A stretch of 64,000 bases of DNA from Nitrospira sp. (GTDB lineage: Bacteria > Nitrospirota > Nitrospiria > Nitrospirales > Nitrospiraceae), in the NCBI GenBank assembly GCA_047150005.1, contig AP038806.1, positions 3,424,001 through 3,488,000 on the forward strand, in the 5' to 3' direction. Made by a program: the position numbers and the translations under genes. Position 1 is the stretch's first letter, and every line of letters starts with the position of its first letter. Positions 8,773 through 57,926 of this stretch are shown here, one piece after another. The notes below the pieces were generated by a model. The model saw only the letters and a list, made by a program, of their open reading frames with translations, made no database searches and had not been told where the DNA came from.

Positions 8773-8779
8773 TTTCCAT

Positions 8780-35140: not shown

Positions 35141-35179
35141 GAAGTGGTGTCCCGTTTCGCGTTAGTGCTAATCAGCGCC

Positions 35180-39800: not shown

Positions 39801-39869
39801 GTATCCTGCTCCCCTTGAAATTGAGACCACCTCTACGACATGGTCCTACGACGGACCGAGGAGGTGGCG

Positions 39870-41026: not shown

Positions 41027-41044
41027 TTTCAGGGGAGCACTACA

Positions 41045-42704: not shown

Positions 42705-43008
42705 ATGCCCGATAGTCGCGGGAGTCGATAGGACCCGTATCCAACGGCAGTGGTGATCTGTTCAATAGATACGTGATCAAGCGGCTGTATTGTGTGTACC
42801 AACGGCAGGCGTTCCGATACGCCGCTTCAACAGCCGGATCCGACTTCCAGGGTGAAACATCAAGTTGGTCGTTGACGAGAATCTCGAGCCACAGGGTTTT
42901 GCGGCCTCGCGCGGTCTTCACGGCCTCAGTAATTGAGTCGGTACCCAAGTAAGCCGGTAGCAATCGAAGCGGCTGTTCGGCTGATCCTGACTGAGCCACT
43001 TGTTTCAT
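42667..43008 (-). CDS. Hypothetical protein, probable partner of the nucleotidyltransferase
   Basis: Overlapping two-gene arrangement. Confidence 0.6.
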   Translation of the reverse strand: MKQVAQSGSAEQPLRLLPAYLGTDSITEAVKTARGRKTLWLEILVNDQLDVSPWKSDPAVEAAYRNACRWYTQYSRLITYLLNRSPLPLDTGPIDSRDYRAFAEALTFVCAHR

Positions 43009-43455: not shown

Positions 43456-43858
43456 GATGCTCTCCTTCTCGTCCTATGGTCCGACGATGGATTGTGCGCG
43501 TGACCCTTGCCCGCGATACAAAGCAATACGCATGCCATCGGATCTCGGATATGTCGGTTCATCCATACACAACGTGATTGGCCGCAATTTTAGAGGCGAT
43601 TCGCATTTCTCTCGTCGAGGGCTGTCACGACGGAGTGAATCAATACGCAACACAACTGAATCTGTTCGTCCTGTAACGGCATCACATTTGATCCAGGAGG
43701 TGTCAATCAAGAATCAAGAATTCCGATTGAGGAATTTCTGCCGAGGCTGCGCGGGAACGTGCTGAATGCTGAGCCGGAACTCAGCACAATGGGAGAGGAC
43801 AGGCTGCATCTTCTTCCGACCAGAGATGATGAGGAGGTCGGCGAGACGTCGGCGTCAT

Positions 43859-46081
43859 TTATCTGATTGTCTCCTGTGTCGAATAGAAGGGAAGGGTGAA
43901 GTAGAATGAAGTGCCTCGACCAACCGTGCTGTCCACCCAGATGCAGCCGCCGTGCAACTCGACCAGACTTTTGGCGATGGCCAAACCCAACCCGGCTCCT
44001 CTGGCTTCCGCTGATGTGGTTGTTCCCCTGAAGAATTTCTCGAAGACTTTCGGCAGCTCGGCAGGCGGGATGCCGCAGCCGGTATCGGACACGCAAATCT
44101 GGAGAAAGTCGGTGTTATCGTGGACCTGTGCCTGCACGGAGATCCGTCCCCCGGGCGGGGTGAACTTGATCGCGTTGCCGATGAGATTCGTCAGAATCTG
44201 CGTAAGCTTGTCCCGATCTGCATGAACAGCCGGCAGAGCCGCAAGGGAGTGCAAGTCGATGGTCACGGATTTACCGGCCGCGAGCGACTGCAATCCTTCA
44301 ATCAGCTCGTTCATCCATTCGACGATCGGAATCGGTTCCTGTCTCAGCTCGACTCGACCGGCTTCAATGCGGGACAGATCGAGCAGATCCACGATCATTC
44401 GCGTCAGACGGTCGATGTTGAATTGGATGCGGCGAAGATACTGCGATTGTTTGTCGTTCACGGCGCCGGTCACACCGTCGAGCATGTTTTCAACATAGGT
44501 CCGGATCGACGTCATGGGCGTGCGCAGCTCGTGCGACACCATGGACACGAACGAGGATTTCAGCTGATTCAACTCTTGTAACTGCTTGTTCGCCGCTTCG
44601 AGTTGGACCGTCCTCTCGCAGACTTTCTGCTCAAGCCCCGTATTCAGTTCTTCGATCTCCCGGTACGCCGCGACATTGTCCAACGCGATGGCCAGTTGAT
44701 TGGCAAAGGTGACCATGAGAGCCAAGTCATCTTGAGTCAGACTATGCGCCTTACTCCGGTCTACAGTTATCGAGCCCAAGATCCAATTCTTGACCTTTAA
44801 TGGGACAGAGAGAAACGACTCGGTGCCTGTTTGTTCCACGAGTTTCCAAGAGAGAGGATGAAGTTGTTCACGAATCTTGGTCACGTCACTGACAAGAATG
44901 GGCTGACCCCGCAAGAGGACCATTCCCTCGATGCTGGATGGGTCGGCCACCGGCACTTCAAGTTGCCGAGCGAACGCGGCGATCTCAGGCACGACTCCGA
45001 GGAGGCGGGCACTGTGGCTGATCTGGCGAAGAGGGTCGTAAAAGCTGATCATGACTCGATCGTAAGACAGTTTGTGGATGAGTGTTTCTTGAGCGCAATG
45101 AAGTAACGTTTCCTTGTCCCTGGTCGAGGTGAAGGCCAATCCCGCATCATAGAGTGTGGTCAAATGATCGACACGCCGCTGAAGATCCGAAGCGAGCTGC
45201 TGTTGCTGAACATAGGCCTTTTGCAGTTCGTCGTGCCAGGCATCGAGCGATCGTGCCTGCTCCTCGATAATGTGTTCGCGTTGTGCGATCTGTTGAACGG
45301 ACCCCGGCCGGTTCAACCATGTGCTCACTCGCCACAAACGCCGCGCCGGTGTGCTTGCTTGCCAGGCCACTTCCCATTCGCAATATTCGTCGCCTTCCGC
45401 GACACAACTACGATCGGTCACCGTTGCGGGCGGCAGTTGGTGGAAGATTTCAGGGACTCCGACGAAATAGCCCTTCACGGCGGTACACCACAGACGAGCG
45501 CACGAACGACGATACAGGCCGAAATGACGATACGTGCGTTCGCTGAACGTCAACCGCATGATGGCCCACCGGTCCGACATCGTGACGGCATCCACAAAAA
45601 AAGAATTTCTTGAGTATCGTTGAGCGATATAGACGGACATCTTGTAGATTTGTTGAACCGAGAACCGCCGCAGCAGTATCTGGATGATAGGTGAAATGGC
45701 CTTCTTTCTGGCCATGTTGAATTGAAGATCCGGATCGCCGGAAATGTCGGAGCAGATCTGAGTAAAGAAGGCGGAGAATTCGGTGGAGTAGCTGTTCCAC
45801 GGATTCTTCAAGATCGCTTCGGTAATGCGAAATGCCGGATCTGGAATCCGTTCATTCAGCAGGCGGACGAGCTCTTGAAGTGCACGCGCTCCGGAAGCGA
45901 CACCCTCTTTCTTGGAGACATACTCCTCCAGCTCTTCGACGCAGGCCTTGACGACGACTCCACTGAGATCGCGGATCCTTGTTCCGTCAGGTTCGGTCCC
46001 GAAGGGCTGAAATTCCATCATGCCCTTCTCGGTAATGGAATGATCTTTCGGGAGCAGCTCGGTCACGGCCTCGGTCTCCAA
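43859..46081 (-). CDS. Cytoplasmic sensor histidine kinase (V4R-like, GAF, HisKA, HATPase_c)
   Basis: SCVAEGDEYCEWEV, SFLSVPL, VSHELRTPM, NLIGNAIKF, DTGCG, GAGLGL; start uncertain. Confidence 0.92.
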   Translation of the reverse strand: METEAVTELLPKDHSITEKGMMEFQPFGTEPDGTRIRDLSGVVVKACVEELEEYVSKKEGVASGARALQELVRLLNERIPDPAFRITEAILKNPWNSYSTEFSAFFTQICSDISGDPDLQFNMARKKAISPIIQILLRRFSVQQIYKMSVYIAQRYSRNSFFVDAVTMSDRWAIMRLTFSERTYRHFGLYRRSCARLWCTAVKGYFVGVPEIFHQLPPATVTDRSCVAEGDEYCEWEVAWQASTPARRLWRVSTWLNRPGSVQQIAQREHIIEEQARSLDAWHDELQKAYVQQQQLASDLQRRVDHLTTLYDAGLAFTSTRDKETLLHCAQETLIHKLSYDRVMISFYDPLRQISHSARLLGVVPEIAAFARQLEVPVADPSSIEGMVLLRGQPILVSDVTKIREQLHPLSWKLVEQTGTESFLSVPLKVKNWILGSITVDRSKAHSLTQDDLALMVTFANQLAIALDNVAAYREIEELNTGLEQKVCERTVQLEAANKQLQELNQLKSSFVSMVSHELRTPMTSIRTYVENMLDGVTGAVNDKQSQYLRRIQFNIDRLTRMIVDLLDLSRIEAGRVELRQEPIPIVEWMNELIEGLQSLAAGKSVTIDLHSLAALPAVHADRDKLTQILTNLIGNAIKFTPPGGRISVQAQVHDNTDFLQICVSDTGCGIPPAELPKVFEKFFRGTTTSAEARGAGLGLAIAKSLVELHGGCIWVDSTVGRGTSFYFTLPFYSTQETIR

Positions 46082-46123
46082 AGGCGCAGGTGAGAAAAAC
46101 CCTTCCGACGCTGTGGCATGTTG

Positions 46124-47683
46124 TTACAGCGTCTTCAAATACTCCATCAGTGCCCGTTTGTCCTGATCGGGCAGGTTGGTGCCGTAGACATGGCCTCCAT
46201 TGCCGTTTCCCGGTAGCCTGGTATCGTACTTGAAAGATCCGCTGCAGTCATCCGCACCGGGGTCCCACTGAAATCCGACATGGTCCCAGTCATACAGGTT
46301 GTTTCCCCGACAAAATTCGACGGGCCGTTTGGATGGATCCTGGAGGAGATGCCACAGGGTTGGAACCGACCCATTATGGAGGTACGGAGCCCGCAACCAG
46401 ATACCGGTCAACAACAGGTTCGCGTAGCCGTTCGTCTTCCAGTAGTTTTCGAGCCTCCAGGCGGCCAGATGATGGACCTCGTTCAGCTTGTCGCTGAGCG
46501 CCTCGCTAAACGCATCCAAACGGGCCTGGTCCGTCCCAATGTCCTTGATGCCCACAATTCCGCTCGTTTGAGCGCCGTCTCTCCCGTGACATTTATGACA
46601 GTGGGTCGTGAAGAGCGCCAGGCCCTTCGCCACGAGCTTTTCGGCAAGAAGGGGATCGGTTTTCGGGCCTGGCACCATACTGTGATAGCTCTCGATGGCA
46701 TAGTCATCCGCCTCAAACCATGTCGCAATGCGGGTGACTGCCCGAAGGTCGAGCGTCGCGGGAGTGGCCCCGGCGCCAAGGGCGGCCGTGATGTTGCGCT
46801 CCTGCGGGCTCCGGTTATTGCCGTCCCAGTGCAATGCTCCCTGTGGCAGTTTTTCCCTCCAGAGTGCCGGAAAATCAGCGATTCCCGATAACGCGCCCGG
46901 ATCCATCTCAAGGGTCGGTGCGCCGAACGCCGGCAATTTCTCAAAGATCTGTAAAGAGTCCTGGAGCTTTTCAACCTTGTAATAGGCCCACGTATCGACC
47001 CGGCCCGGTCCGAACGGAGTCGGTCTGCGGTCGAGGAAGCCGAACTTGTGCTTCATGCTTTTCGCGCCGTCCTGAAAGGCCGGAATCAGCAGATAGCGGT
47101 GGATGAACTTCTCCCAATATCCCAGCCGGCCCTTCTGCTCGATGTGTTTCAGGACATTCTCGGTCGTAAAATCGGGATCATCCGCCGCGGCGAAGAGAAA
47201 ACGGAAAAACGCTTCGGCATCCACCGTGTTTGCCGGCATGCCCAAGATGATGCGGGTGGGACCGTCAGGCGTCGCGCGTACAGTCGATACATGACAGAAC
47301 GCGCAATTGATTCCGATGAACTCACCCGCGCCGAACCGCCAGCGCTTTGAGAAGCCGATCGGACGATCGACGCGGTCTTTCGGGTCCATCGTCAGCCCGA
47401 AGGCTTCGTAGGTGAGGGATTGGCATTGCGGGAGATGCGGGAGGTGCTGGGGAAACATTTCCGGCAGGATCTGCCAGATTCTGTAGGGAATGCCTCGTCT
47501 CAAGTTGTCCGACCCGATGGAACCGTACTTGAAGTGCATGGCGGTGTCGTCGTAGGAGTCCGCACATCCATCCAGCACCAACTTGTTGAACAGGTAGACC
47601 AGAACCGCCAGGAGTCCCAGCACGAGGAGGATTCTGCCGCCGGGTCCTCGTGACCGCTTCTGCTTCACCGCGTCTGTTCCCAT
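46124..47683 (-). CDS. Membrane-anchored di-heme c-type cytochrome (RoxA / peroxidase-like)
   Basis: CAFCH, CHKCH, GIWLRAPYLHNGSVPTL, GNGNGGH; N-terminal TM helix. Confidence 0.85.
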   Translation of the reverse strand: MGTDAVKQKRSRGPGGRILLVLGLLAVLVYLFNKLVLDGCADSYDDTAMHFKYGSIGSDNLRRGIPYRIWQILPEMFPQHLPHLPQCQSLTYEAFGLTMDPKDRVDRPIGFSKRWRFGAGEFIGINCAFCHVSTVRATPDGPTRIILGMPANTVDAEAFFRFLFAAADDPDFTTENVLKHIEQKGRLGYWEKFIHRYLLIPAFQDGAKSMKHKFGFLDRRPTPFGPGRVDTWAYYKVEKLQDSLQIFEKLPAFGAPTLEMDPGALSGIADFPALWREKLPQGALHWDGNNRSPQERNITAALGAGATPATLDLRAVTRIATWFEADDYAIESYHSMVPGPKTDPLLAEKLVAKGLALFTTHCHKCHGRDGAQTSGIVGIKDIGTDQARLDAFSEALSDKLNEVHHLAAWRLENYWKTNGYANLLLTGIWLRAPYLHNGSVPTLWHLLQDPSKRPVEFCRGNNLYDWDHVGFQWDPGADDCSGSFKYDTRLPGNGNGGHVYGTNLPDQDKRALMEYLKTL

Positions 47684-47734
47684 GCTGGCCTCCCTCTCGA
47701 TGTGCCGGTGACACCGGCACATCGGATAACCGCC

Positions 47735-50700
47735 TCATGCGTTGATGTTCGCCTCCAGCATATCGGGGTAGATCCTCCACACTTCCCAAGGATCCTTTTC
47801 CATGGTTTGTTGGAGGTTCTGTAACTCACGGCGAAACTGAGCGAAGGCAGCGGCTCCGCGGTTGTCGAGCGCGAGATACGAAAAGTCATCCATCAACGCG
47901 CGTCTGGTTACATTGAGGTTGAAATTCGCATTGACCAACCGTTGATAGACATCGAGCGGCTCGCGTCGCCCGTTCGTGTAGACTCGAACCGGTTGGCGGT
48001 GGGTCCAGAGCTGATAGTTCCAGAGAGAGGTCCCCACACTTTCATGCTGAACGGTCACCAGATAGATGAAGCGGGCAATAAGGCGGGCCACGGCGGCCAA
48101 CGTGAGAGCATCGTGATCTACCCCTACCGCATGGTGAACCCCCGCAGGGCATGGAACGAGATCATTCAAGGCCTTCACCCAATTGACCATGTCGTGGTCA
48201 TCTCGAATGCTGAGGTGAGGTGGATAATGGGCGTCGAGATAGCGCTGAACGTGCTGATGAATCACGTTAAAGAGCGCTTCGAAATTCTGTTGACTGGTAG
48301 CGATCCTGGCAGTCTTCAGGCCCTCGAGGTATTGCCGTACCCCGCGTCTCTTCGCATCCTCCTCCGGATCATTCACAAGAAAGTCGAAGCGGTTATAACT
48401 CTCCGTAAACAGCCGGCACATGCCCTCCTGCGTAAAACTAAAAATCGTTTCAAAGTCCCCATCCTCAACCATCTGCACCAATGTCACCATATAGTTGCTT
48501 TGCAGCGTTCCATAGACGTGGGGCCACAGTAACCGGCAGACCGGGTGGTCGGAAGGCAGGCAGTTTCTGGTGGCGATGGCGAGCGGTTCAGCGCTCGCAA
48601 GGTGCACCCAGTTGAAATGACGGACGAGCGAGAGATGGGTCGTGGCCGCGCAGAGCGCCAGCTTCTTCGCGAGGTCCCAATTGTCAAACCAGGGTCGCGA
48701 AGAGCGAAGAGTTCTTTCCGTGATGTTTTCGATTTCTGTGGCCTCGAGTCGGCCGGGCTGGCGGCGACTGCTGCGGAAGAACACTCTCACCCCTAGACGG
48801 TACAGCCCTTGGTGATACAGGTTCTCCGGAAGCGCGAGATCGCGAAAGTCCCATTGGTACTCTCGAAGCCCCGGCCTGTGTTCGGCGGCGGGGACTCGCT
48901 CGGTATAGCACGCGTAGGGTCCTTTGATCGCGAGCGACCCGAGGTCGGGGCTGCCTTCATATTCCGGAGGCAGATCAGGAGGATCAAAGGCTCTTCGCTG
49001 CAGAAAGGAATAGGCGGTCCGGAATGCCTCTGCCGGATTCGACGACACCGCAGGTAACGGGTTATCGTCCTGCATGGGTGAAAAAATTGAGTACAGTCGG
49101 ACCTGTATGTCGGAGAAGAAGGCCTTTTTCCGTTCTCGTTCGTCGGCCGGAATGTTGCCCGACACCCTGATGTTCGTAATCGGGATCGTCGGGAATCGTT
49201 CGTTGAACGGCACAACGGAAATATCGTCAAGCCGCCACGCCGCCTTGGATTGCCTCAGGCGGCGGTCGAGTCGGTCTGTGAGACATTTCCAGAAATGTTC
49301 AAGGCGCCTTCCGTGCAGGTGTGCGTTTGTCGCGCGGGCTTCGGCCCAGAATTTGAGCCAGACCACCTGTTTCCACCACCATCGTCGGCGAGGGGGAGGA
49401 AGATTGACCGGGCGGTTACCCGCGAATTTGAACCAGCCCACGAAGCGCCAGAATCGCCCCCGGAGGCTCCACGTTACCTCTGCGGGACGGACCATCCAGA
49501 CCGAGCCGATGAAGAGGGCCGAGAGGAGGGCCCCCCACCATGCGGGAGGGCTCGTCAACGCCAGCCAGACGAAGGAATGAAAGTCCTCTTCACGGGCCTT
49601 ATCCAGCAGAAACTTTCCGACACCTAGGGCGAAGCCCACGAGCGCGCCTCGCAGCCCCCACACAACCATCCATGTCCGGTCGCGGACCAGCACCCACGTG
49701 ACGCTGAAGCCCAGGACTGTCCCGAGTACGGCTCCAGCGCTTGCGGTGGACGAGGCCAAGGCCTCTGGAAGGTGCCATTGATGGTGGAAGATCAGATGGA
49801 GCAGCCCTCCGAGGAGCCAACCGCCGGCCGCGGCGACCGCCACCCATCCCATCATCAACAGGCTCAGTCCTGCGGCAGCGCCGATCGCGGCTCCCGCAGC
49901 GACATGAAAGCTCATGACATCGAGTGTCGCGAGAGCCGCGGTGAGGAATGACGCAGAACCACCGGCCCATTCCAGGATGCCCCATACAAGTCCCACGGTC
50001 GCAAGCGTTCCCAATGCGGCGACAAGACTATCGCGTCTTCTGCTCGGTCCCGTTCGCACGAGGGCGTCGCGCAACGCCGTGACCGCGATCACCACGGCGA
50101 GAGATGCGAAGAGCATTAATGCCGTCGAAAGGACCTGCCACAGGTCTTCGACCAGGCCGACGATCACTCCGATGACCGTGCCGATGATCGCTCCGAACAG
50201 TGTCCCAAACAGCAGCCCGTATAATGTCCGCGAGATGAAGCGGCGTATGCCGCCCTCGGCAAATATCCCCCGCAACGGTTTCCGCCCCGCATAGATGACG
50301 GCAATGGCGGCCCCGCAGAAGGCCCCGATCAGCGCCTCCCGTTCGCCCAGTCCATGAAAGAGGATTGTGAGGTCTTTGAGGCCCGAGAAAGACACCTCCT
50401 CGTCCCAGAGGTACCAGGCCCCACCGAGTATCCAGCCGACCAAGGTGCCGGTTCTGACTCGCCATGGACTCTGTTCTCGAATCAAACCGGCGGCGGCCCC
50501 ACACAAGGCTCCGATCAGTGCGGTCCTGGTCAGCAACGCGTGACCGAGAGTCACTGCGACGTCCCAGAGTCCCGACAAGAACAGTCCGTGATTCCACACA
50601 TGGTAGCGCGCACCCATGACCCACCCGATCGTCGCCCCTATACCGGCGGCAGTCTGCATCTGCTCGCGTAACGTGAGGACACGCGTCGCGAGAAAGCTGG

Positions 50701-53011
50701 TTCCGTAGAGGATCGCCAAGGTCGCCCCTCCGAAGATCGCGCCGATTACGGCCCCGTATGCGGCCGTCTCGGTGCCGAGCGACGGCAAGAATTGACTGAA
50801 CGTGAAGTGTGGCTGAGAGGCGTGGACGCCGGCTCCGATCAGCCACCCGATGAACGCGCCTCCGAACATCGGCATCTGGAACATCGACACGCGCCGCATC
50901 TCGGGCCGCGGATCGGCGGCGGCGGGGTTGGGATCGAACGGCGCGGGAGACGGGCGCTCCGTCCGCTGCCACGGGGTAAACGCGTTCCTGATATCGTCGA
51001 GCGCCGGCGCAAGATCCGGATGGTGACGAAGAAGCACGCTCTTGAAGGTGTTGTGCTCGATCCAATCCAGTCCGATCTGGGTGTAGACATCCGCGTTGAA
51101 ATCCGTGGTAATGAACCGATCGCTCTTGAGCCGACGGGGGGCCATCAACACGAATATCCGAAAGGCTGTGTCGCTGAATCCAAATCCCTTCGGGACTACT
51201 TCCGCATGGAGTCCGACCATCAGGTCGAGATCCTCCTTATCGGGATACGACTTCTTGAGCTGCCTGGCCCAGGCTTTCCGTTCCTTGATCTGGCGATTGG
51301 AGAGTCCGCTGAACCACGTAATGAGCGGGACTCCGACGAGCTGATTGTACGAGACGCAAGGAGCCATCATGAGCATCCGGCGGAAGTTGTTGTATCGGGG
51401 AACGGCGCGTTCGCGGTCGCGCATGATATCAATCGTCCCCAGATCGAGCGGCTCGCCCTGCGGAAAGGTGTGGTCTTCGTCTTTCATCCTCCTAAAGTGC
51501 TGCAATGCACGCGGGAAGTTATTCAGAGTGACCGCGCCGGGATGGGCGACACCGAACGAATACAGGAGATTGTTCACGCCGGCTCGTTCCACGAAATCTC
51601 GCGCATGGTCCCCCTGCAGGTCGTTAAAACTGCATCCCACGGCCAGTTCATCCGTTTGCAGGTCGTAGACGCGATACTCGTCGGGGATCAACGGGTGCAT
51701 CCGATACACGGAGACGAACTCCTCCGTCATATAGAAAGGGGACGCATGATGATCTTGCTCAGACGCCGGAATGCCGCTCACCTCTTCTTGCAGATCGCGT
51801 AAGACACGTAAGCGTCCGATGATTTTCGTGAATCGTTGCGTGAGGATGCCCCACCAGTTGGCCCGCATGCCTTGGTACAGCGTGGGATGGCCCAAAATGG
51901 CCGGCGTCCACTCCACGGTGTGAATCTTGGCGATCAAGGCCGCATTGATCAGGCGCGCCGTCTGAAACAGACGCTCTTCCGGCCAATGAGGGTATCCCTC
52001 TTTGAGACGGTCGCAGATGGCGTTGTGTTCCAGCGCAAAGAGCGTATGGAGCAGGTTCAGCCCGGCCCACCAGTTGTCGTTAAATCCGGTGAGATCGACC
52101 CCGGCGCGCGCGGGATCGGCGGGCAGTCGCCCCGCTACGGTGAAGAGTTTCCCGCTACCGTCGTTCTGCCGCAGTTCGCTCTGCTTTTGCTGACTGCTTC
52201 CATACAGCTGCGACGCGTCCCACCAGTGCGTTTCGGTGTTGCGGTACACGGGAAGATCGGCCAGCCCTTCAAACCGTTTCCCGGGACCGAAGTCAGGGCT
52301 CTGGCGGTCAATCGTGTCATCCGGCAACGTCGCGCGAATCTGCATGGTGCACTCGCCATCATTTCTGCCTGGCCAGTCATCCTGTGGATCCAATTCAACG
52401 GGAGGTAGTTCATTCCCCTGCTCCGGCGGCGGCTGCTGCCCCGGCGGCAGGGGAGGACGCCTGCGGTGATTGAACCAATCGTGAACCTGAAACTGAATCC
52501 AGGCAGCCGCAAGGAGGTTCAGCGAGGATGCGGCCCTGAAACGATCGCGCGTCAACAATGTCCGGCTGATGGTACGGGGATTCGGCGACAGGAGATGGGA
52601 ACGGTTGCCGGTGGCTTGCTCCCGGAACAGCTCGCTCAATCGCTTCAGCGGAAAATTCCTGGCAAAGCGGGTTTCGGCGCTGCCCATGCGCGGATCTTGG
52701 AGATCGTTGAACGTGCCGTCTGCAGTCCGGGCCGTCCGATACAGAGGGTTCCAGCGCTCTGTGCGAGGATCGGAAGGAGGAGGTTGGGTCGGCAGCAAGG
52801 ACGTATCGTAGAGATTGCGCCTGCGCATGATGAAGCGGTACATGGCAAGATTCCAAATGCCGATGTGTCGCCAGAGGTGATGCCAGGAAATGAGCAGGTT
52901 GAGTAGGAGGAAGAATGAAGCCAGAACCCAGAACAGCATGGCGGCTGCAAGGCCGAATCCTCCGAAAAATATCTTGCGCAGCAGGTCCCAGAGGAAAAAT
53001 GGTCTGGTCAT
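47735..53011 (-). CDS. Fusion of alpha-dioxygenase-like heme domain, multi-TM Gly-rich region and lipoxygenase domain
   Basis: WIQFQVHDW, KIHTVEWT, EEFVSVYRMH, DRERAVPRYN.FRR, RRLKSDRF; LOX motifs RHFNWVHLASAEP, HPVCRLLWPH, QHESVG, C-terminal NINA. Confidence 0.88.
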   Translation of the reverse strand: MTRPFFLWDLLRKIFFGGFGLAAAMLFWVLASFFLLLNLLISWHHLWRHIGIWNLAMYRFIMRRRNLYDTSLLPTQPPPSDPRTERWNPLYRTARTADGTFNDLQDPRMGSAETRFARNFPLKRLSELFREQATGNRSHLLSPNPRTISRTLLTRDRFRAASSLNLLAAAWIQFQVHDWFNHRRRPPLPPGQQPPPEQGNELPPVELDPQDDWPGRNDGECTMQIRATLPDDTIDRQSPDFGPGKRFEGLADLPVYRNTETHWWDASQLYGSSQQKQSELRQNDGSGKLFTVAGRLPADPARAGVDLTGFNDNWWAGLNLLHTLFALEHNAICDRLKEGYPHWPEERLFQTARLINAALIAKIHTVEWTPAILGHPTLYQGMRANWWGILTQRFTKIIGRLRVLRDLQEEVSGIPASEQDHHASPFYMTEEFVSVYRMHPLIPDEYRVYDLQTDELAVGCSFNDLQGDHARDFVERAGVNNLLYSFGVAHPGAVTLNNFPRALQHFRRMKDEDHTFPQGEPLDLGTIDIMRDRERAVPRYNNFRRMLMMAPCVSYNQLVGVPLITWFSGLSNRQIKERKAWARQLKKSYPDKEDLDLMVGLHAEVVPKGFGFSDTAFRIFVLMAPRRLKSDRFITTDFNADVYTQIGLDWIEHNTFKSVLLRHHPDLAPALDDIRNAFTPWQRTERPSPAPFDPNPAAADPRPEMRRVSMFQMPMFGGAFIGWLIGAGVHASQPHFTFSQFLPSLGTETAAYGAVIGAIFGGATLAILYGTSFLATRVLTLREQMQTAAGIGATIGWVMGARYHVWNHGLFLSGLWDVAVTLGHALLTRTALIGALCGAAAGLIREQSPWRVRTGTLVGWILGGAWYLWDEEVSFSGLKDLTILFHGLGEREALIGAFCGAAIAVIYAGRKPLRGIFAEGGIRRFISRTLYGLLFGTLFGAIIGTVIGVIVGLVEDLWQVLSTALMLFASLAVVIAVTALRDALVRTGPSRRRDSLVAALGTLATVGLVWGILEWAGGSASFLTAALATLDVMSFHVAAGAAIGAAAGLSLLMMGWVAVAAAGGWLLGGLLHLIFHHQWHLPEALASSTASAGAVLGTVLGFSVTWVLVRDRTWMVVWGLRGALVGFALGVGKFLLDKAREEDFHSFVWLALTSPPAWWGALLSALFIGSVWMVRPAEVTWSLRGRFWRFVGWFKFAGNRPVNLPPPRRRWWWKQVVWLKFWAEARATNAHLHGRRLEHFWKCLTDRLDRRLRQSKAAWRLDDISVVPFNERFPTIPITNIRVSGNIPADERERKKAFFSDIQVRLYSIFSPMQDDNPLPAVSSNPAEAFRTAYSFLQRRAFDPPDLPPEYEGSPDLGSLAIKGPYACYTERVPAAEHRPGLREYQWDFRDLALPENLYHQGLYRLGVRVFFRSSRRQPGRLEATEIENITERTLRSSRPWFDNWDLAKKLALCAATTHLSLVRHFNWVHLASAEPLAIATRNCLPSDHPVCRLLWPHVYGTLQSNYMVTLVQMVEDGDFETIFSFTQEGMCRLFTESYNRFDFLVNDPEEDAKRRGVRQYLEGLKTARIATSQQNFEALFNVIHQHVQRYLDAHYPPHLSIRDDHDMVNWVKALNDLVPCPAGVHHAVGVDHDALTLAAVARLIARFIYLVTVQHESVGTSLWNYQLWTHRQPVRVYTNGRREPLDVYQRLVNANFNLNVTRRALMDDFSYLALDNRGAAAFAQFRRELQNLQQTMEKDPWEVWRIYPDMLEANINA

Positions 53012-53056
53012 GCACGCCTCGGGATGACGGGAGTCGTGCTCCGGCAGCAATCTGTG

Positions 53057-55537
53057 TTAACGAGGCCAACAGGTTTCAACATATTGGAATAATGTCTGCG
53101 CGGCGTTCGGTGAACAGGCCTCAAGCGTGGCTTCCAATTGCTCGTCCATTTCTCGGGCGGACTCCTGGGAGAGTGTCCAGCCGAGTGGAAGGTTGGCCGA
53201 GGCGGCTCGGAGCCTGAACCGGATGAATCTTGCCTTTGGCCCGACCCGCTCATGCTGCGTCTGGCGCTCCACGTGCAGGGCTGTGTGGCGGCCACGCGCC
53301 TGTTGCGATCTATACATCGTGATGAAGGGCGTCACGACCTCGTCCAGATAGGTCCGACCCGGCTGCATCACATCCACCACGGTATCGACACGATCAAGCC
53401 GGAGTGTGTAGTACCGATTGGTCTTGAGCCGGTCCCTCACGGATTTCACGGCGATGAGCGTCGTTTCACTCGGAGACATCGAGGGGGTGGGCGGACAACT
53501 CCTGTGAACATCATGCAGCCGGTGAGGGCCTTCTTCCTGAAGCTCGACGCGAATGCATTCCGGAAAGATGGGAGGCACGCGTGTGTCGAGCGGGCCGATA
53601 TATCGGACGCCCACGGTGACCAGTTCAGGCTCATTGCTGATGTGTAGCACAATGGGCATGATGCCTTTGCCGCCGATAGGATCTGAACTCCAGCGATCGA
53701 TCTTCGGTCTGACCTCGCGATACACCTCTTCCAAGGAGGTCATCCCGGAATTCTCGAAATAGCCGCCGTCAACGAGATGAAGTCGCTTGTTCACCGTCCC
53801 GGCCGGACTGACAAACGAGAAACGGGCGCTGTTGTTGACTGCGGTGCTGAGTCGTACGGTCCGCGGATCGGGTGCGGCACGAAGGCCGACGTTACACTCC
53901 GGCTTGTTCAACGCCCTCGTGAGATCAATGACGTCATCGAATATGCCGGTCGCTCGTCCTGTCGAGGTCTCAAGACAGTCATCGTTACGCGGAGAACTGT
54001 CTACCTGAAGGCTGCTTGTGAGAACTCGAATGCCCTGCTCGACCGAGGTCGTATTCAGGATCAGGCCCGGCACATCGGTTTTCCTTTTGCCGAGCCAGAG
54101 GTCTTCGAACGGCTGTTCAAATCGGTTCGATGCGTGCCTTGTGACTTCGTTCCACTGCTGTTCCCAACCGAGCTCGATGCTTCGCCCACGGTCCCAATAC
54201 GGGACCGGCACGAACAGAAAACGTTGCAGGAGATCCGGATAGAGTAACGTACCGAACGTGGAAGCAAGATAATCCTGCCGCAGCATCGTTCGTGCGCATT
54301 CTAAGAACTTCGCTGGAAGGCCGCAGTCGCTCCGGCTGCCTTCGTCGGCAACAAGTGCGGTAAATATCGCAGCGCCCAAGCTTCCCCCCGATACTCCGCT
54401 GATCACGAACACATGTGATCCAAAATCCGGTCGGTCCTGCTCGATTCGAGAGAGCACGGATGCTGTCCAGTACGCCGCTCGAATTCCGCCTCCCTCCGCG
54501 GCAACAAAGAACACCGGGATAGGCCCCGGAATGGTCTTGTCGTCACTCAGGCGGCGCTGCATCCACGCGTCGAAGTGGTCCGCCACGGCCAGTCTGACCG
54601 GTTGCGCCCCGTCGGAAGGGCGGATAGTGCGTATGACGTGATTATCGTTATAGGGGCTGACCACCAACACGTAGAAAAAGAGGACACTCAGGATTGGGAT
54701 TCGGTGCCAAAGGCTCCAATAGATCAGCATCGTGCCGGGTGGAATCCAAGAGGCTGCAGCCAGCAACACGATGAATGCAGGTCCGAGCGCAGGGGCCAAG
54801 CGCAGATTCATCCAGGTGGTTTGGAAGACGATCAAGGGGATCAGAAACAACAGGACGAATGACCAGAGAAGGGCCCTGAATGTGGGAGCGGGCAGATCAT
54901 CCCGGTTTCTGTAGAAATGACCTGCTCGTGGATCTTTGATTCGGGGAATGTGCTTCGGGAGCAGTCGGTTGGCCGACTGAAATCTTCTTCTGAGGCGAGT
55001 AGCCCACACGTGACGCTTCGACACGACAAGCCCGAAGATTGCTGCGCAGATCAGATAGAACCCTCCATTGCCGATGACGAGACTGTCAGCCGTTCTCCCC
55101 TCAAGGGACCACAGAAACCCGACCGCAACCGTCAGGATGGCGGTCACACCAAGGGCACGGGGCAGCACACGGTGGTACCAAAGAATCCAGTCACGCCTTT
55201 GGGGGGCCGCATCGGCGGGGGGCCAGTGTGGAAACTGGAAAGAAACGATGACGCGGGACCAATACCACGACGCCCAAGCCCACGTGAATACACTTAGCAG
55301 AAACCAAGCATTTTGAGTCGCCCATCCGCTCTGGAGAGTTTGCAACCGAATCAGGAGTTCCTGGCCTTGCGCACTCCAGTTCAAGAGCACACCCGCCAAG
55401 ACAATGGTGAGGACCGAGAACCGGCAGAGTTTGAGCACCTGCCAGAGATCGAGGAGGGGCTCAAGGAACCGTGCGATGACGGCGGCGACGCCGTCCAAGA
55501 AGCTTCTGCAGCTCGTTTGCGTGCTCTCAGGACTCAA
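53057..55537 (-). CDS. Membrane-bound patatin-like phospholipase
   Basis: N-terminal TM helices; GGGIRA, GVSGGS, LVDGGYFEN. Confidence 0.88.
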   Translation of the reverse strand: MSPESTQTSCRSFLDGVAAVIARFLEPLLDLWQVLKLCRFSVLTIVLAGVLLNWSAQGQELLIRLQTLQSGWATQNAWFLLSVFTWAWASWYWSRVIVSFQFPHWPPADAAPQRRDWILWYHRVLPRALGVTAILTVAVGFLWSLEGRTADSLVIGNGGFYLICAAIFGLVVSKRHVWATRLRRRFQSANRLLPKHIPRIKDPRAGHFYRNRDDLPAPTFRALLWSFVLLFLIPLIVFQTTWMNLRLAPALGPAFIVLLAAASWIPPGTMLIYWSLWHRIPILSVLFFYVLVVSPYNDNHVIRTIRPSDGAQPVRLAVADHFDAWMQRRLSDDKTIPGPIPVFFVAAEGGGIRAAYWTASVLSRIEQDRPDFGSHVFVISGVSGGSLGAAIFTALVADEGSRSDCGLPAKFLECARTMLRQDYLASTFGTLLYPDLLQRFLFVPVPYWDRGRSIELGWEQQWNEVTRHASNRFEQPFEDLWLGKRKTDVPGLILNTTSVEQGIRVLTSSLQVDSSPRNDDCLETSTGRATGIFDDVIDLTRALNKPECNVGLRAAPDPRTVRLSTAVNNSARFSFVSPAGTVNKRLHLVDGGYFENSGMTSLEEVYREVRPKIDRWSSDPIGGKGIMPIVLHISNEPELVTVGVRYIGPLDTRVPPIFPECIRVELQEEGPHRLHDVHRSCPPTPSMSPSETTLIAVKSVRDRLKTNRYYTLRLDRVDTVVDVMQPGRTYLDEVVTPFITMYRSQQARGRHTALHVERQTQHERVGPKARFIRFRLRAASANLPLGWTLSQESAREMDEQLEATLEACSPNAAQTLFQYVETCWPR

Positions 55538-55598
55538 CGGTCATGACTCCCAATCCCGCCGCACACTACCGATTCCCGTGAGAGGCAACACGATCGGA

Positions 55599-57020
55599 TT
55601 AGAAATTGAGGCGAAGGTTAATGGAACCGATGTGTAAGAGCGTCTGATAATCTCCATTGACGGTCGGATTGATATTGCCCGTGATCGTCCGGGTTTCGTA
55701 TATTTGCGCCTGATACGCCAGATCCAGTCCGATCGCCCCTCTGCCTTCCCTGCCCATCGAACCGCAGGGAATCACCCCGAGAAACGATGCGTGCTCTTTG
55801 CAAAGAAGCCCGAGACCGACCGTGATTCCGTTGAAATTCGAGTCAGGAACGGTAGGATTAAAGGTCGCGTCGGGGACCGGAGTTTGTGAGCGGATATATC
55901 CCCCACGCGCCGCCACTTCCCAATTCGGCAACCGTTCAACTTGAAGCCACCGGTATTCCGTACCGATCATGACCACTACGCTGTTTTGCCAATTTTGCGG
56001 GAAGGGGAGGGTCGCCCCATTGGACAGGTTGACATTAAAGTTACGGAAGGATTGCCACCCGACATAGTCGAGATCCAATTCGAGTTTCCATTCACGCTCG
56101 CGGTTGCGAACCGGCCAGATCCCGATGCCCGCCGAGAAGATCTGAGGCAACACCGCGGTCGCTGAGGTATTCGCCGCGGTGCCTCCATTGACGAGAAATT
56201 GGCCGTTGATGGGAAGGACGGCTTGACTTCTGTACACGAGCCCAACATTCACCAACGGCTTGCCGTCTTCGTTGCGGAACGGCGTGTACATCATGCTGAC
56301 ATTGAATCCTGCTCCCGTGCCGTTGCCGTTAACCTCTAGGGGAGTGAGAGGAGGAATCCCGGGAATGCCAGGCGGGCTATTGAATTTTTGCTCGAAATGG
56401 CCGTTTCCGAGAAAGCTCGCAAACGTATAGATGTCGGCTCCGAGCCCGAAAGACAGCTGCTCGTTCAGCTTGAAGGCAATGGTCGGTTTGATGTCCATCA
56501 GAGGCAACGCCGCGCTTGTCACGGCAGTCGAGAACGGTCCGTCATTGGGGTATCGAATCTTGAGCCCGAACGGTGAGTTCACTCCGATACCGACTACGGT
56601 GTCGCCGAGCGCCTTCAGTCCCAGGTCTTTGAGGTTGGCCGTGAGGTACAAATTGCTGGGTGGCGGCATCGCGACGCTCCCCCCAAGATCTCCGCGGACG
56701 TTAAGGCCGGTCGGACTCGTGTAGCTGACGGAACCCCCTACGAGATTGGTGCCCAGGTACACTTGAATGCCGTGAAGTTGTGTCATGCCGGCCGGATTGT
56801 AATGAATGGCCGAAGGGTCGTCGGCTTGAGCAATAAACGCGTTGGCCTGACCTTCGGCGGCGGCGCCCTGTGGCATGATGCGAAAGGCTTCGGCTTGCAC
56901 CCAGCCAGGGACAACTGCATTCCCGGCGAGAACGCAGAGCATCGTCGCACAGACCCTAGTCCCGATTCGGTGGGCCGCTCGACTCTCTGCCTTCTCGGTT
57001 CTGCTCACTCCTGGATGCAT
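55599..57020 (-). CDS. fadL: OmpP1/FadL long-chain fatty-acid outer-membrane transporter
   Basis: AQADDPSAIHYNPAGM, PFGL, PD motif, C-terminal Phe; GGAGG RBS before 57020. Confidence 0.9.
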   Translation of the reverse strand: MHPGVSRTEKAESRAAHRIGTRVCATMLCVLAGNAVVPGWVQAEAFRIMPQGAAAEGQANAFIAQADDPSAIHYNPAGMTQLHGIQVYLGTNLVGGSVSYTSPTGLNVRGDLGGSVAMPPPSNLYLTANLKDLGLKALGDTVVGIGVNSPFGLKIRYPNDGPFSTAVTSAALPLMDIKPTIAFKLNEQLSFGLGADIYTFASFLGNGHFEQKFNSPPGIPGIPPLTPLEVNGNGTGAGFNVSMMYTPFRNEDGKPLVNVGLVYRSQAVLPINGQFLVNGGTAANTSATAVLPQIFSAGIGIWPVRNREREWKLELDLDYVGWQSFRNFNVNLSNGATLPFPQNWQNSVVVMIGTEYRWLQVERLPNWEVAARGGYIRSQTPVPDATFNPTVPDSNFNGITVGLGLLCKEHASFLGVIPCGSMGREGRGAIGLDLAYQAQIYETRTITGNINPTVNGDYQTLLHIGSINLRLNF

Positions 57021-57148
57021 AACGGGCCTCCCTAGCGGGACATATTCCTGCACAGTCTGTTTCCGCCTCACGAATACTGCTGGGTTACACATTCGGCATA
57101 GGGAGCAGAATCAGCATTGGAATCATGATGCGAGGAGAGAACTCGTAG

Positions 57149-57164
57149 AGCAATCCACACGCCA
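57149..57164 (-). promoter_or_regulatory. Candidate sigma54 promoter of the fadL operon
   Basis: TGGCGT-GTGGA-TTGCT (GG-N10-GC). Confidence 0.5.
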
Positions 57165-57344
57165 TATGCCAATCAGGCTTGGGCAATTTCCTCAAACCCT
57201 TGTCCTTGATTGAATTCCAGGTGGATTGTTGCACGAGGGAATAGCCTGATCTAGGCTCGACAGAATCCTTTTAGATTCATCAAGGATCGAAATGGATGCT
57301 ATTTCGTGGTTGGGATTTGGGGGCTCTTCCTTTACACTTCCGTC

Positions 57345-57926
57345 ATGCGGTTAATACTTCCATCCTCCTGCGAACCGGCCTTGCTCGAACGGTTTCTCAA
57401 AGCCGAAGCCATGGCGCTCTGGTCCGTGCGCGCGGCGCAGGTGAGGGATGTTCCTCCCGGTGTCTTGGCGTTCCTCCGCCGGCATGAGGAAGAGGAAGCG
57501 GAGCATCTTCGCGAATTCGAGGCCAGGCTCGGGGTGATCTCACACAGGCGGGAGAAGCTCCCGCGCGTTCCCAGCCAATGGTGGGCGTTGGTCATTCACC
57601 TCTACGGCTACGAGACGCTCGGACTGGAGTTTGCGAAGCTCCTGGTGCAGGTACAGCCGGATCTGCAGTCGATCCTCGAGGATGAACTGGTTCACGTCGA
57701 ATTCTTCGAGGAGGAAGTGCGGAAGGTGTTGGCTCAAGGAGGGCGAGGTGCCGTGGAGGCCGGGAAATCCGCGCAGGCTTGGTGGCGGAGATTGCCGCCC
57801 ACCGTCGATCGGTATCTCGAAGGGGAGCAACTGGCTCCCTATCGGGCTGACCTCAAACGGTTGATTCTGGAATCGATCGAAGAGCGGTTTGCGAACGTCG
57901 GGCTATTCAATAGAGTACTGAAATAA
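57345..57926 (+). CDS. Ferritin-like di-iron protein
   Basis: AEAMA, EEAEH, YETLG, DELVH (E...ExxH twice); TACACT 6 nt upstream suggests a leaderless transcript. Confidence 0.75.
   Translation: MRLILPSSCEPALLERFLKAEAMALWSVRAAQVRDVPPGVLAFLRRHEEEEAEHLREFEARLGVISHRREKLPRVPSQWWALVIHLYGYETLGLEFAKLLVQVQPDLQSILEDELVHVEFFEEEVRKVLAQGGRGAVEAGKSAQAWWRRLPPTVDRYLEGEQLAPYRADLKRLILESIEERFANVGLFNRVLK

Follow-up and report, generated by a model that had tools for sequence, protein, structure and literature searches.

Do the five minus-strand genes found in this window (the whole 64-kb stretch of Nitrospira sp. DNA that was analysed) encode a pathway that makes and senses oxidised lipids? A preliminary description had proposed five tightly spaced, co-oriented genes behind a GG-N10-GC motif, and had read them as a circuit of lipase, oxygenase, hydroperoxide-converting haem enzyme, and receptor. 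All five genes were confirmed at their proposed positions (Table 1), with gaps between listed ORFs of 61, 6, 12, and 42 nt from fadL to the kinase, and no terminator-like site was found on the minus strand in the intergenic gaps of the operon. We read the operon as a pathway that oxygenates membrane lipids and is coupled to a lipid-sensing kinase in the cytoplasm, an interpretation that is plausible and still falls short of probable. If true, it suggests that nitrite-oxidising Nitrospira make and sense oxidised lipids.

Table 1. Positions of the operon, its protein domains, and its upstream elements in the window.
Feature	Position	Strand	Basis
FadL/TodX-family outer-membrane channel gene	55599..57092	-	PF03349
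Polytopic membrane patatin-like phospholipase gene	53057..55537	-	PF01734
Patatin TM region	~54638-55537	-	hydrophobic segments
Patatin catalytic domain	53060-54505	-	PF01734 and motifs
1771-aa DOX-LOX fusion gene	47735..53050	-	An_peroxidase and Lipoxygenase
Alpha-dioxygenase-like haem domain (residues ~108-700)	50951..52729	-	An_peroxidase
Glycine-rich hydrophobic linker (residues ~720-1200)	49451..50893	-	~8 predicted membrane segments
Divergent mini-lipoxygenase domain (residues 1277-1771)	47738..49222	-	PF00305
RoxA-like di-haem c-type cytochrome gene	46124..47722	-	NF040606, PF21419, two haem c motifs
Soluble GAF histidine kinase gene	43859..46081	-	Pfam GAF, HisKA, HATPase
H-NOX/V4R-fold sensor of kinase	45341-45967	-	predicted-structure fold match
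Kinase GAF domain	44681-45112	-	Pfam
Kinase HisKA domain	44357-44560	-	Pfam
Kinase HATPase domain	43886-44218	-	Pfam
Sigma-54-type -24/-12 promoter candidate TGGCGTGTGGATTGCT	57149..57164	-	GG-N10-GC motif
Conserved non-coding block between fadL and a divergent 206-aa gene	57250..57305		near-identity with Nitrospira sp. KM1

The motifs of the patatin, the alpha-dioxygenase (DOX), and the lipoxygenase (LOX) support a predicted enzyme set that is coherent for lipid oxygenation. The patatin matches PF01734 (32.8 bits) with intact motifs (GGGIR349, GVSGG381, and DGGY590), has several hydrophobic segments in its N-terminal ~300 aa, and retrieved no relative of solved structure in a sequence search. 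The next gene had been described as a DOX-LOX fusion; both domains are present, but the first is specifically alpha-dioxygenase-like and a stretch of ~470 hydrophobic residues between the two had been overlooked. The An_peroxidase match covers residues 108-680 of the fusion (E 5e-96), the best solved relative of the DOX domain is the plant alpha-dioxygenase 4hhr (E 1.1e-92; cyclooxygenases ~1e-9), and QVHDW188, YRMH449, and RRLKSDRF639 line up with the motifs of alpha-DOX, with the catalytic Tyr and both His conserved. The linker has no Pfam match at E<=5 and belongs to no known family. The LOX domain matches PF00305 (48.2 bits, E 7.7e-13), lacks a PLAT domain, and its family profile matches 11R-LOX 3vf1 (E 1.6e-23). 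RHFNWVH1477 and QH1669 are conserved and the three iron-ligand His are kept, with Gly1673 in place of the expected Asn and NINA at the C-terminus. In its clade the fourth iron-ligand position is occupied by Gly and the C-terminal residue is Ala, so that canonical lipoxygenase chemistry is not assured. No Nitrospira is known to make the polyunsaturated substrates needed by LOX, which counts against the oxygenation reading, and the three FA_desaturase-family genes of the host genome are not decisive for this question. The stand-alone LOX and DOX of relatives lack a signal peptide and show a W/R/K-rich amphipathic N-terminus and basic residues after TM segments, a charge distribution that fits oxygenases placed at the cytoplasmic face, i.e., in the compartment of the kinase, and that is the only basis for this predicted topology.

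The cytochrome carries two haem c motifs (CAFCH140 and CHKCH375) and one N-terminal hydrophobic segment, scores 168.5 against NF040606 (cut-off 150), and also matches PF21419. Its only solved relative is RoxA 4b2n (4.7e-9 with the protein, 5.1e-14 with the profile), and, judging from these features, it is a membrane-anchored, RoxA-like protein whose haem c attachment implies a periplasmic location. The FadL-family channel, of a type that passes hydrophobic molecules, matches PF03349 at 116.3 bits and the FadL equivalog NF007988 at only 37 (cut-off 585); it has a signal peptide, its true start is probably the ATG near 57019 that follows GGGAGG, and it has two paralogues in the host genome (G000, C1:4066512-4067903 and 2113611-2115083).

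The last gene product had been called a V4R-GAF histidine kinase. It is a GAF kinase, and its sensor has the fold of the H-NOX/V4R superfamily, but V4R scores 13-15 bits, below the Pfam cut-off of 31. The window kinase has no hydrophobic segments, hence we read it as soluble, and, unlike most of its relatives, it has no receiver domain. In its structure model (pLDDT 90.2) the predicted sensor aligns with H-NOX over 169 of 183 residues (Z 13.9, rmsd 2.7 A); H-NOX domains are also its best Foldseek matches (E ~1e-5), and it also resembles Bet3, which binds palmitate (Z ~9), and MopR, which senses phenol (Z 8.5). Such matches are what one would expect of a true H-NOX that binds haem, senses NO or O2, and sets the expression of the O2-dependent dioxygenases, both gases being physiologically relevant to Nitrospira. 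We consider this very improbable: Pfam HNOB has zero matches in the host genome at E<=0.01, the sub-threshold signal of the sensor is V4R and not HNOB in 9 of 27 members, and no His is conserved among the 27 sequences in the counterpart of the H-NOX proximal helix, where positions 142-156 hold Y, K, or R, and H in at most three. Since it has neither an HNOB match nor a conserved proximal His, the sensor is probably haem-free.

Four cysteines of the sensor (C194, C199, C226, and C234) are kept without exception in all 27 sequences and lie in the helix and hairpin that hold the zinc of V4R/MopR-type domains. A zinc-thiolate or iron-sulphur site built from them could be the target of oxidation by lipid hydroperoxides or other oxidants, in which case the kinase, as a sensor of redox or lipid-peroxide stress, would report oxidative membrane damage and no specific ligand. 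The neighbouring enzymes would generate hydroperoxides, some H-NOX proteins bind zinc at the equivalent site, and a Vibrio H-NOX reportedly performs thiol-based redox sensing. However, the equivalent Cys cluster is structural in ligand-binding phenol sensors, and the modelled cavity, which is H-NOX-like and of full size, would together with the conserved basic residues R182, R185, R191, and R192 fit the binding of an acidic lipid, which makes redox sensing improbable.

The comparative evidence for the linkage of kinase and oxygenases is strong. The five-gene order and both flanks are kept in Nitrospira sp. KM1 (G010; 58-73% protein identity). The preliminary description had named a kinase unlinked in relatives as grounds for abandoning its reading; instead, of the 32 Nitrospiraceae genomes that bear LOX, 27 have it beside this kinase family (22 by coordinates, four from fetched loci, and one convergent), as does G038, from another family of the same order. 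The other five of the 32 are contig-end cuts or fragments that cannot be judged, and in none of the 32 was the kinase shown to be unlinked from LOX. Gene order varies (DOX-LOX-HK, DOX-LOX-cytc-HK, patatin-DOX-LOX-cytc-HK, and LOX-HK-FadL) and membership is kept, with the cytochrome preceding the kinase in the sensor subclade of the window (16 rows, support 100/99). It counts against the proposed pathway that the patatin occurs in only four of the Nitrospirota loci examined (the window, KM1, G047, and the G038 contig). The genes might be neighbours by chance or history, their adjacency functionally meaningless and the kinase controlling unrelated functions, given that no partner regulator or target is known and that kinases of this family are far more widespread than the oxygenases. 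We give this little credence, because the intergenic gaps are short and the adjacency, despite reordering, recurs in many genera and in each of the two deep clades of the sensor tree.

The kinase sensor, with a FadL gene, occurs in 211 of 251 Nitrospiraceae genomes but LOX in only 32, and 14 of 20 genomes without LOX have FadL beside the kinase; the kinase is therefore not dedicated only to oxygenase products. As the kinase-FadL pair is common without LOX, including a second pair without oxygenases in the host genome, the ancestral ligand need not be an oxygenase product. The circuit first proposed is partly supported: the kinase linkage and the coherent enzyme set stand, but the cytochrome is RoxA-like and its conversion of hydroperoxides is unsupported. 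Kinase and FadL could instead be an ancestral detector of exogenous hydrophobics, e.g., free fatty acids, that enter via FadL, to which oxygenases, lipase, and cytochrome were added as effectors that oxidise or shorten incoming lipids for detoxification or catabolism, with no signal being made. This import scenario is rather unlikely, yet has several points in its favour: its kinase-FadL core is near-universal, independent of LOX, and present twice in the host genome; LOX-associated sensors are dispersed through the core clade of the sensor tree, which fits gain and loss of effectors beside a stable sensor; alpha-dioxygenase chemistry takes one carbon off fatty acids; and the combination of FadL/TodX channel, V4R-type sensor, and sigma-54 promoter is like that of the XylN/XylR and TodX hydrocarbon systems. 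On the other hand, a membrane-embedded patatin heads the enzyme genes in the window, KM1, and G047, which points to an endogenous lipid source, and the enzymes are predicted to be anchored at the inner membrane and not secreted. Furthermore, the DOX-LOX pair has neither FadL nor this kinase family beside it in any of the 63 loci of other phyla, an absence that also speaks against our main reading; in these loci DOX adjoins LOX in 59 and the cytochrome follows LOX in 20. Among 38 protein clusters of fused homologues, 23 have a long hydrophobic linker (290-599 aa), 13 are direct fusions, and two have the reversed order; DOX-LOX fusion has thus taken at least three forms.

The motif ahead of the operon is present as TGGCGTGTGGATTGCT. 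The two strands of the 4.07-Mb host genome together hold only 145 copies of its stringent form, TGG[CT]N7TTGC[AT], and ~0.004 occurrences are expected on one strand of the 214-nt gap upstream of fadL. KM1 has the counterpart TGGTCCATAGATTGCT upstream of its fadL, and the stringent motif lies 5' of the first gene of the module in 5 of 38 loci, where ~0.009 would be expected for each 480-nt stretch. The host genome has rpoN and 27 PF00158 matches, none of them within the 64-kb window, and no response regulator or enhancer-binding protein adjoins the operon. Together with the missing receiver domain of the kinase, the lack of a neighbouring response regulator counts against the sensing pathway. 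The conserved non-coding block is nearly the same in KM1, where the remaining intergenic sequence has diverged; in either genome its distance upstream of the sigma-54-like motif is ~86-95 nt. The operon is probably sigma-54-dependent, and the block is a possible enhancer or operator.

What was observed is the gene content, the conservation of catalytic motifs and of synteny, the fold of the sensor, and the recurrence of the fusion; from these we infer the substrates, products, topology, ligand, and regulatory output of a lipid oxygenation and sensing pathway. It would involve 1) a polytopic patatin lipase freeing fatty acids from the cell's own membrane lipid; 2) oxygenation of these by the alpha-dioxygenase-like haem domain and the LOX-like non-haem-iron domain, both kept on the inner membrane's cytoplasmic side by the multi-pass linker, either in two oxygenations or with one domain transforming or priming the hydroperoxide of the other; 3) processing of the lipid on the periplasmic side by the anchored RoxA-like cytochrome; 4) passage across the outer membrane through the FadL-family channel; and 5) binding of a pathway lipid by the soluble kinase, whose haem-less H-NOX/V4R-fold domain would hold it in a hydrophobic cavity, followed by signalling via a response regulator, which may be a sigma-54 activator with feedback on the operon.

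We found no publication on this oxygenase-kinase operon in a literature search. The analogy first drawn, with eukaryotic eicosanoid or jasmonate signalling, has a closer bacterial counterpart in Pseudomonas aeruginosa's oxylipin-dependent quorum sensing (ODS), where ExFadLO is the exporter. ODS comprises the PA2077/PA2078 diol synthase and OdsR (PMC6377657), and shares with the Nitrospira operon a bacterial fatty-acid dioxygenase pathway encoded beside a cytoplasmic lipid receptor, periplasmic di-haem c-type enzymes with a FadL-family channel, and positive feedback on the enzyme operon as the obvious model. The ODS oxygenases are of the di-haem cytochrome c peroxidase family, its receptor is a LysR regulator, and its substrate is exogenous oleate, whereas Nitrospira has alpha-DOX-like haem b and LOX-like domains, a histidine kinase with an H-NOX/V4R-fold sensor, and a membrane lipase; its di-haem protein is RoxA-like and has no CCP_MauG Pfam match. 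Natural oxygenase fusions include coral and cyanobacterial catalase-related AOS/HPL-LOX, fungal DOX-CYP (linoleate diol synthases), and a cyanobacterial catalase-haem dioxygenase (PMC11719350, PMC13049297, PMC5617202). They too join or pair a primary fatty-acid dioxygenase with a second, hydroperoxide-handling enzyme, and the cyanobacterial mini-LOX likewise has no PLAT domain, but Nitrospira pairs two dioxygenase-type domains, often joined in DOX-LOX homologues by a polytopic membrane linker, a pairing of which our literature search found no published description. Plant alpha-dioxygenases (PDB 4hhr and 4kvj) resemble the DOX domain over ~430 residues (E 1e-92), with distal His, catalytic Tyr, proximal His, and Arg pair aligned, whereas the Nitrospira domain is bacterial, membrane-tethered, and fused to LOX. 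The H-NOX/HnoK systems share the fold over the whole H-NOX domain and its signalling to a histidine kinase, but in Nitrospira the sensor is fused to the kinase and is probably haem-free. Finally, the V4R-type sensors XylR, DmpR, MopR, and PoxR go with FadL/TodX-family channels (XylN and TodX) and sigma-54 promoters. The Nitrospira sensor belongs to the same fold superfamily, has its Cys cluster equally placed, and lies beside a FadL/TodX-family gene behind a candidate sigma-54-type promoter, but it is carried by a GAF histidine kinase instead of an AAA+ enhancer-binding protein, its V4R signal is sub-threshold, and the associated enzymes are predicted to act on lipids and not on aromatics.

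The five long ORFs of the putative operon lie on one strand and are as tightly spaced as the preliminary description had read them, with gaps of 61, 6, 12, and 42 nt, and no terminator-like site was found on the minus strand in these intergenic gaps. The GG-N10-GC motif reported ahead of them was recovered as well: it reads TGGC-N7-TTGCT, has the canonical -24 GG/-12 GC spacing, and is a candidate sigma-54 promoter. A stringent form of this motif occurs 145 times on both strands of the whole 4.07-Mb single-contig genome, so that about 0.004 copies would be expected on the right strand of the 214-nt gap. The genome has a single rpoN and matches the sigma-54 activator domain PF00158 27 times, in no case within the 64-kb window at 3424001-3488000. 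Nitrospira sp. KM1, in which all five genes recur in unchanged order between the same flanks, carries a similar sigma-54-type motif upstream of its fadL, and a conserved block of about 50 nt, some 90 nt further upstream of the motif, is nearly identical in the two genomes. Rfam gave no match between positions 42500 and 58500 (E<=0.1), and base composition revealed no apparent genomic island in the window.

Coordinates of the operon and of other features discussed in the text (window positions unless a locus is named)
Feature	Position	Strand	Remark
Putative operon, five ORFs	43859-57092	-	fadL, patatin, DOX-LOX fusion, di-haem cytochrome c, histidine kinase
Sigma-54 candidate	57164-57149	-	TGGCGTGTGGATTGCT
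Conserved block	57250-57305		
206-aa ORF	57306-57926	+	divergent from the operon
Second sigma-54-type motif	43522-43537	-	TGGCATGCGTATTGCT
113-aa ORF	42667-43008		
DUF6036 nucleotidyltransferase gene	42156-42704		
Sigma-54-pattern 16-mers	24813; 35800	-	TGGCCTACCCATTGCA, twice
Sigma-54-pattern 16-mer	41916	-	TGGCCTACTGATTGCA
Direct repeat, 300 nt	24049-24348; 35036-35335		11 kb apart
TPS-domain gene	28104-32144		
Transposase genes	39081-41362	-	rve integrase core and HTH
Thymidylate-kinase-like genes	58471-59220; 59168-59917	-	adjacent, slightly overlapping
Three tandem sensor copies	8275-10809		kinase at locus L017 (genome G075)
Three tandem sensor copies	1674-4208		kinase at locus L018 (genome G088)
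Three tandem sensor copies	1788-4313		kinase at locus L113 (genome G083)

Several features of the surroundings deserve mention in their own right. Downstream of the kinase, KM1 encodes a 1060-aa An_peroxidase, an 859-aa unknown protein, and a GMC oxidoreductase; none of them is found in the window's genome, which has transposase genes in the same place, shortly downstream of the operon, and the small ORFs that follow the kinase are unrelated in the two genomes. A second near-consensus sigma-54-type motif lies in the gene-poor stretch of about 850 nt directly downstream of the kinase, ahead of the 113-aa ORF and the nucleotidyltransferase gene. Near-identical 16-mers of the same pattern recur at three further sites, and together with the direct repeat they indicate duplicated or mobile DNA around the TPS-domain and subtilase genes. 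At the other end, the divergent 206-aa ORF is 74% identical and syntenic in KM1; it was dropped as a pathway member, having no match at the other module loci searched. It contains two E-x-x-H motifs and a weak COQ7-like match (E 0.038), and may encode a ferritin-like di-iron protein. Beyond it, the two thymidylate-kinase-like genes, about 38% identical to each other, adjoin a Ppx/GppA phosphatase gene and are found in KM1 at 91-94% identity.

The proposed fusion of two oxygenases is indeed one protein of 1771 aa, with an alpha-dioxygenase-like haem domain (DOX; PF03098, An_peroxidase, E 5e-96) and a divergent mini-lipoxygenase domain (LOX; PF00305, Lipoxygenase, E 7.7e-13, 48.2 bits for a cut-off of 23.6) devoid of PLAT, and a homologue with 66% identity is annotated in KM1, which assigns the window's genome to the genus Nitrospira. 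The nearest solved relatives of DOX are plant alpha-dioxygenases (4hhr, E 1.1e-92), while cyclooxygenases and true peroxidases match at about 1e-9 or worse. The plant motifs align with HDW190, Y449-R-M-H452, and R639-R640, which we take to provide the distal His, the catalytic Tyr (Y449) and proximal His (H452), and the carboxylate-binding Arg, respectively. Judged by its sequence, the domain would belong to the alpha-dioxygenase branch of the peroxidase-cyclooxygenase superfamily, a branch typified by 2-hydroperoxidation of fatty acids. The profile of the LOX clade matched 53 solved LOX sequences (best 1.6e-23), and H1478, H1483, and H1669 fit the pattern HxxxxH plus a later His, are presumably the iron ligands, and coincide in the alignment with the ligand His of 3vf1 and 5med; all three are kept in 40/40 aligned clade members. 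The fourth side-chain ligand (Asn/His/Ser, four residues after the third His) is absent and replaced by Gly1673 (QHESVG), with Gly in 39 of the 40 members; the C-terminus is NINA instead of the usual Ile (or Val) that coordinates the metal through its carboxylate, with Ala last in 38 of the 40, and a terminal carboxylate is still available. Because this Gly and the C-terminal Ala are kept across the clade, we regard it as a distinct and constrained LOX-like clade and not as a decayed copy; it has 159 representatives among 1.84 billion (E<=1e-30). The two domains are separated by about 470 glycine-rich hydrophobic residues with about eight predicted membrane segments, and Pfam returned nothing at E<=5 for this linker or for the N-terminus of the patatin.

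The family assignments of the other non-kinase genes also stand. The membrane patatin (826 aa; PF01734, 32.8 bits for a cut-off of 27.7) has several hydrophobic segments in its N-terminal ~300 residues and intact motifs for the oxyanion hole (GGGIR349), the nucleophile (GVSGG381), and the catalytic Asp (DGGY590). We dropped a role of this protein in phage defence, as PADLOC showed only generic HATPase matches, on the kinase. FadL is a member of the FadL/TodX/OmpP1 family (PF03349, 116.3 bits for a cut-off of 29.7) that failed at the equivalog level (37 for a cut-off of 585). The di-haem cytochrome c (532 aa, CAFCH140 and CHKCH375) matches NF040606 'CytoC_perox' (168.5 bits for a cut-off of 150) and PF21419 (56 bits). 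Its only solved relative is the rubber oxygenase RoxA (4b2n), the likeness being limited to the first haem motif and the last ~100 residues; its equivalog scores of 50.9-68.8 bits, for cut-offs of 900-1000, led us to reject it as RoxA, RoxB, or RoxC proper.

The pairing of DOX and LOX extends far beyond Nitrospirota. A LOX-clade alignment scan of species-representative genomes gave 169 relatives, the best 80 of which were analysed as loci (63 outside Nitrospirota and 17 within). Among the 63 non-Nitrospirota loci of these best 80, DOX adjoins LOX on the same strand in 59, a cytochrome follows LOX in 20, and the kinase sensor, FadL, and patatin are each found in none. The taxa with adjacent DOX include Mycobacterium, Mycolicibacterium, Pseudonocardia, Geodermatophilus, Pyrinomonadaceae and other Acidobacteriota, Rubrivivax, Rhodoferax and other Burkholderiales, Rokubacteria, Verrucomicrobiae, and Bacteroidota. 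Of the 17 Nitrospirota loci, 15 have the kinase, and the other two end 34 and 102 nt past LOX. Clustering of the neighbours in the 80 loci, contaminated by long antisense ORFs in high-GC genomes, retrieved only lineage-level synteny beyond DOX, LOX, cytochrome, and kinase. Fusions of the two oxygenases form 38 protein clusters, including that of the window: 23 have a hydrophobic linker of 290-599 aa, 13 a linker of 16-60 aa, and two the reversed order LOX-DOX, and all 38 keep the motif of the catalytic Tyr. That fusion arose repeatedly and independently, and that adjacency is almost obligate, argues for joint action of the two oxygenases. Other close relatives of the alpha-DOX-like domain (P0045-P0123) are fused to catalase (PF00199), Old Yellow Enzyme (PF00724), or FAD-linked oxidase (PF01565), mostly in actinobacterial or unnamed metagenomic records; they form a broader group of dioxygenase fusions in bacteria, most of it unstudied.

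The last gene had been described as a V4R-GAF histidine kinase. The GAF-HisKA-HATPase part of this 740-aa protein stands; the V4R assignment does not at family level, as it scores 13.1-15.5 bits against the PF02830 cut-off of 31. No Pfam family exceeds its threshold in residues 1-265, no hydrophobic segment is predicted in the kinase, and 9 of 27 members of the sensor family match V4R at E<=1, all below threshold (best 0.0032). An Atlas look-up gave leads only, all below 0.9, to V4R-family clusters. The AlphaFold model of this sensor, built from the 27 sequences, has a mean pLDDT of 90.2 and matches H-NOX domains over the whole length (Z 13.9, rmsd 2.7 A, 169/183 residues; Foldseek E ~1e-5), followed by the N-terminal domain of VirS (Z 11.7), palmitate-binding Bet3 (Z ~9), and the phenol sensor MopR (Z 8.5; MopR and PoxR at Foldseek E ~1e-3). 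The match to H-NOX raises the prospect of a true haem/NO sensor, which we judge highly improbable: HNOB (PF07700) has no match in the genome at E<=0.01, and no proximal haem-ligand His is conserved in the 27 sequences at positions 142-156, equated with the H-NOX proximal helix by order of secondary structure and not by residue-level superposition. Four cysteines (C194, C199, C226, and C234) are invariant in 27/27 sequences, in a helix and hairpin, and R182, R185, R191, and R192 are mostly conserved. The cluster is presumably the place where V4R-type sensors hold zinc. These cysteines could serve a thiol or zinc redox sensor, a reading we find improbable; the modelled cavity is large and hydrophobic. 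Taking together the fold matches, the missing HNOB and His, and the cysteines and basic residues, the sensor is, on this model, most fittingly placed in the H-NOX/V4R/Bet3 fold superfamily, as a member without haem. Some relatives carry three tandem sensor copies, in kinases that all adjoin cytochrome and/or LOX, and others have a receiver and a class-3 adenylate cyclase domain in addition.

Is the kinase consistently associated with the oxygenases? Of 251 Nitrospiraceae genomes drawn, 32 have the LOX domain, and the linkage that the preliminary description saw in the window holds in relatives: the kinase is linked to LOX in 27 of these 32 and was shown to be unlinked in none. In 22 genomes the sensor is encoded within 2.5 kb of LOX, on its contig and strand; fetched loci added genomes G098, G222, G205, and G077 and, with the kinase in convergent orientation, G112, and the remaining five (G041, G204, G056, G083, and G139) have contig-end cuts or fragments. 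In genome G038, from another family of the order, LOX is followed by the kinase, and the 13.7-kb contig that bears them also encodes a patatin and, as a protein of its own, An_peroxidase. The layouts among Nitrospirota range from LOX-kinase-FadL (G022, G021, and G003), through DOX-LOX-kinase with or without FadL and DOX-LOX-cytochrome-kinase, to patatin-DOX-LOX-cytochrome-kinase (G047), with cytochrome-kinase at a contig end in G020. A meaningless adjacency of kinase and oxygenases might be sought in the kinases that stand apart from oxygenases elsewhere; with linkage this frequent, we give it very little credence.

A number of arguments indicate that the kinase and FadL are the ancestral, general unit, to which the oxygenases became attached. 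First, the sensor domain is far commoner than LOX, occurring in 211 of the 251 genomes (a tally that includes G114 and G045, flagged as unpublished, on neither of which any other claim rests). Second, the window's genome has another, receiver-bearing copy of the kinase, followed by a FadL paralogue and adjoining alr, frr, and pyrH, in the context where G022 carries LOX-kinase-FadL; this copy has no oxygenases. Third, FadL is beside the kinase in 14 of 20 LOX-less genomes, and a distant cytochrome homologue precedes the kinase in three. Fourth, a tree of 48 sensor domains has two clades, with LOX association scattered in the 'core' clade, and a subclade of 16 rows in the other (support 100/99) that gathers the window's kinase and all other cytochrome-associated copies. 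The oxygenase products probably make up only a part of the kinase's ligand class, or lie downstream of it. In three LOX-less loci of one genus (L126-L128; genomes G169, G150, and G153), the distant homologue of the di-haem cytochrome ahead of the kinase-FadL pair is 25-31% identical, and TGGCAT-N5-GTTGCT motifs lie about 145 nt upstream in two of these loci.

How these parts work together can be read in two main ways. We tentatively favour an endogenous pathway of lipid oxygenation that produces and senses its own products, giving it somewhat less than an even chance, because in three lineages the enzyme genes begin with that of a membrane lipase and the enzymes are predicted to be tethered to the inner membrane. 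In relatives where DOX and LOX are separate proteins, neither has a signal peptide and both begin with a basic amphipathic stretch, which would put them in one compartment with the soluble kinase. The chief rival reading, in which exogenous fatty acids are imported, sensed, and oxidised, draws on the universality of the kinase-FadL core; it seems to us rather unlikely when set beside the lipase and the membrane tether. If it were true, the operon would show how nitrifiers perceive free fatty acids, some of which act as biological nitrification inhibitors. A bolder reading is a dedicated lipid-mediator system of Nitrospirota, with an alpha-DOX-like and 'NINA'-type LOX-like synthase, export by FadL, and the haem-less H-NOX/V4R-fold kinase as a new class of receptor. 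This full scheme is a possibility on the unlikely side. Under it, the DOX-LOX pair, ancient and found in seven or more phyla, would be a two-enzyme oxylipin synthase not characterised before; the kinase would be the first receptor of two-component type for an oxidised lipid and would give the H-NOX fold its first lipid-sensing role; and key nitrifiers would use lipids for cell-cell or autocrine signalling.

Signalling by oxidised lipids is a hallmark of animals, plants, and fungi, and to our knowledge the only bacterial system worked out is that of Pseudomonas aeruginosa. The operon provides a second, independently built bacterial candidate, in bacteria that are the main oxidisers of nitrite in soils and wastewater plants. 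It also draws attention to DOX-LOX as a widespread but unstudied enzyme pair, and assigns ligands of a testable class to the sensor, a domain for which Pfam has no family and which most Nitrospiraceae possess; its parts are small enough for expression and assay, so the hypothesis is directly testable. A search of the literature outside subscription journals gave no account of a lipoxygenase from Nitrospira, of DOX and LOX as a pair, fusion, or membrane-linker fusion, or of a link between a lipoxygenase and a histidine kinase. The known oxygenase fusions join a dioxygenase to a catalase-related or P450 partner (PMC11719350, PMC13049297). The nearest worked-out system is the oxylipin quorum sensing of P. 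aeruginosa, with which the Nitrospira operon has no protein family in common except FadL (PMC6377657). In plan, the Nitrospira operon would follow that system: dioxygenases encoded in an operon, di-haem proteins in the periplasm, a FadL-family channel, and feedback through a lipid receptor in the cytoplasm (PMC6377657).
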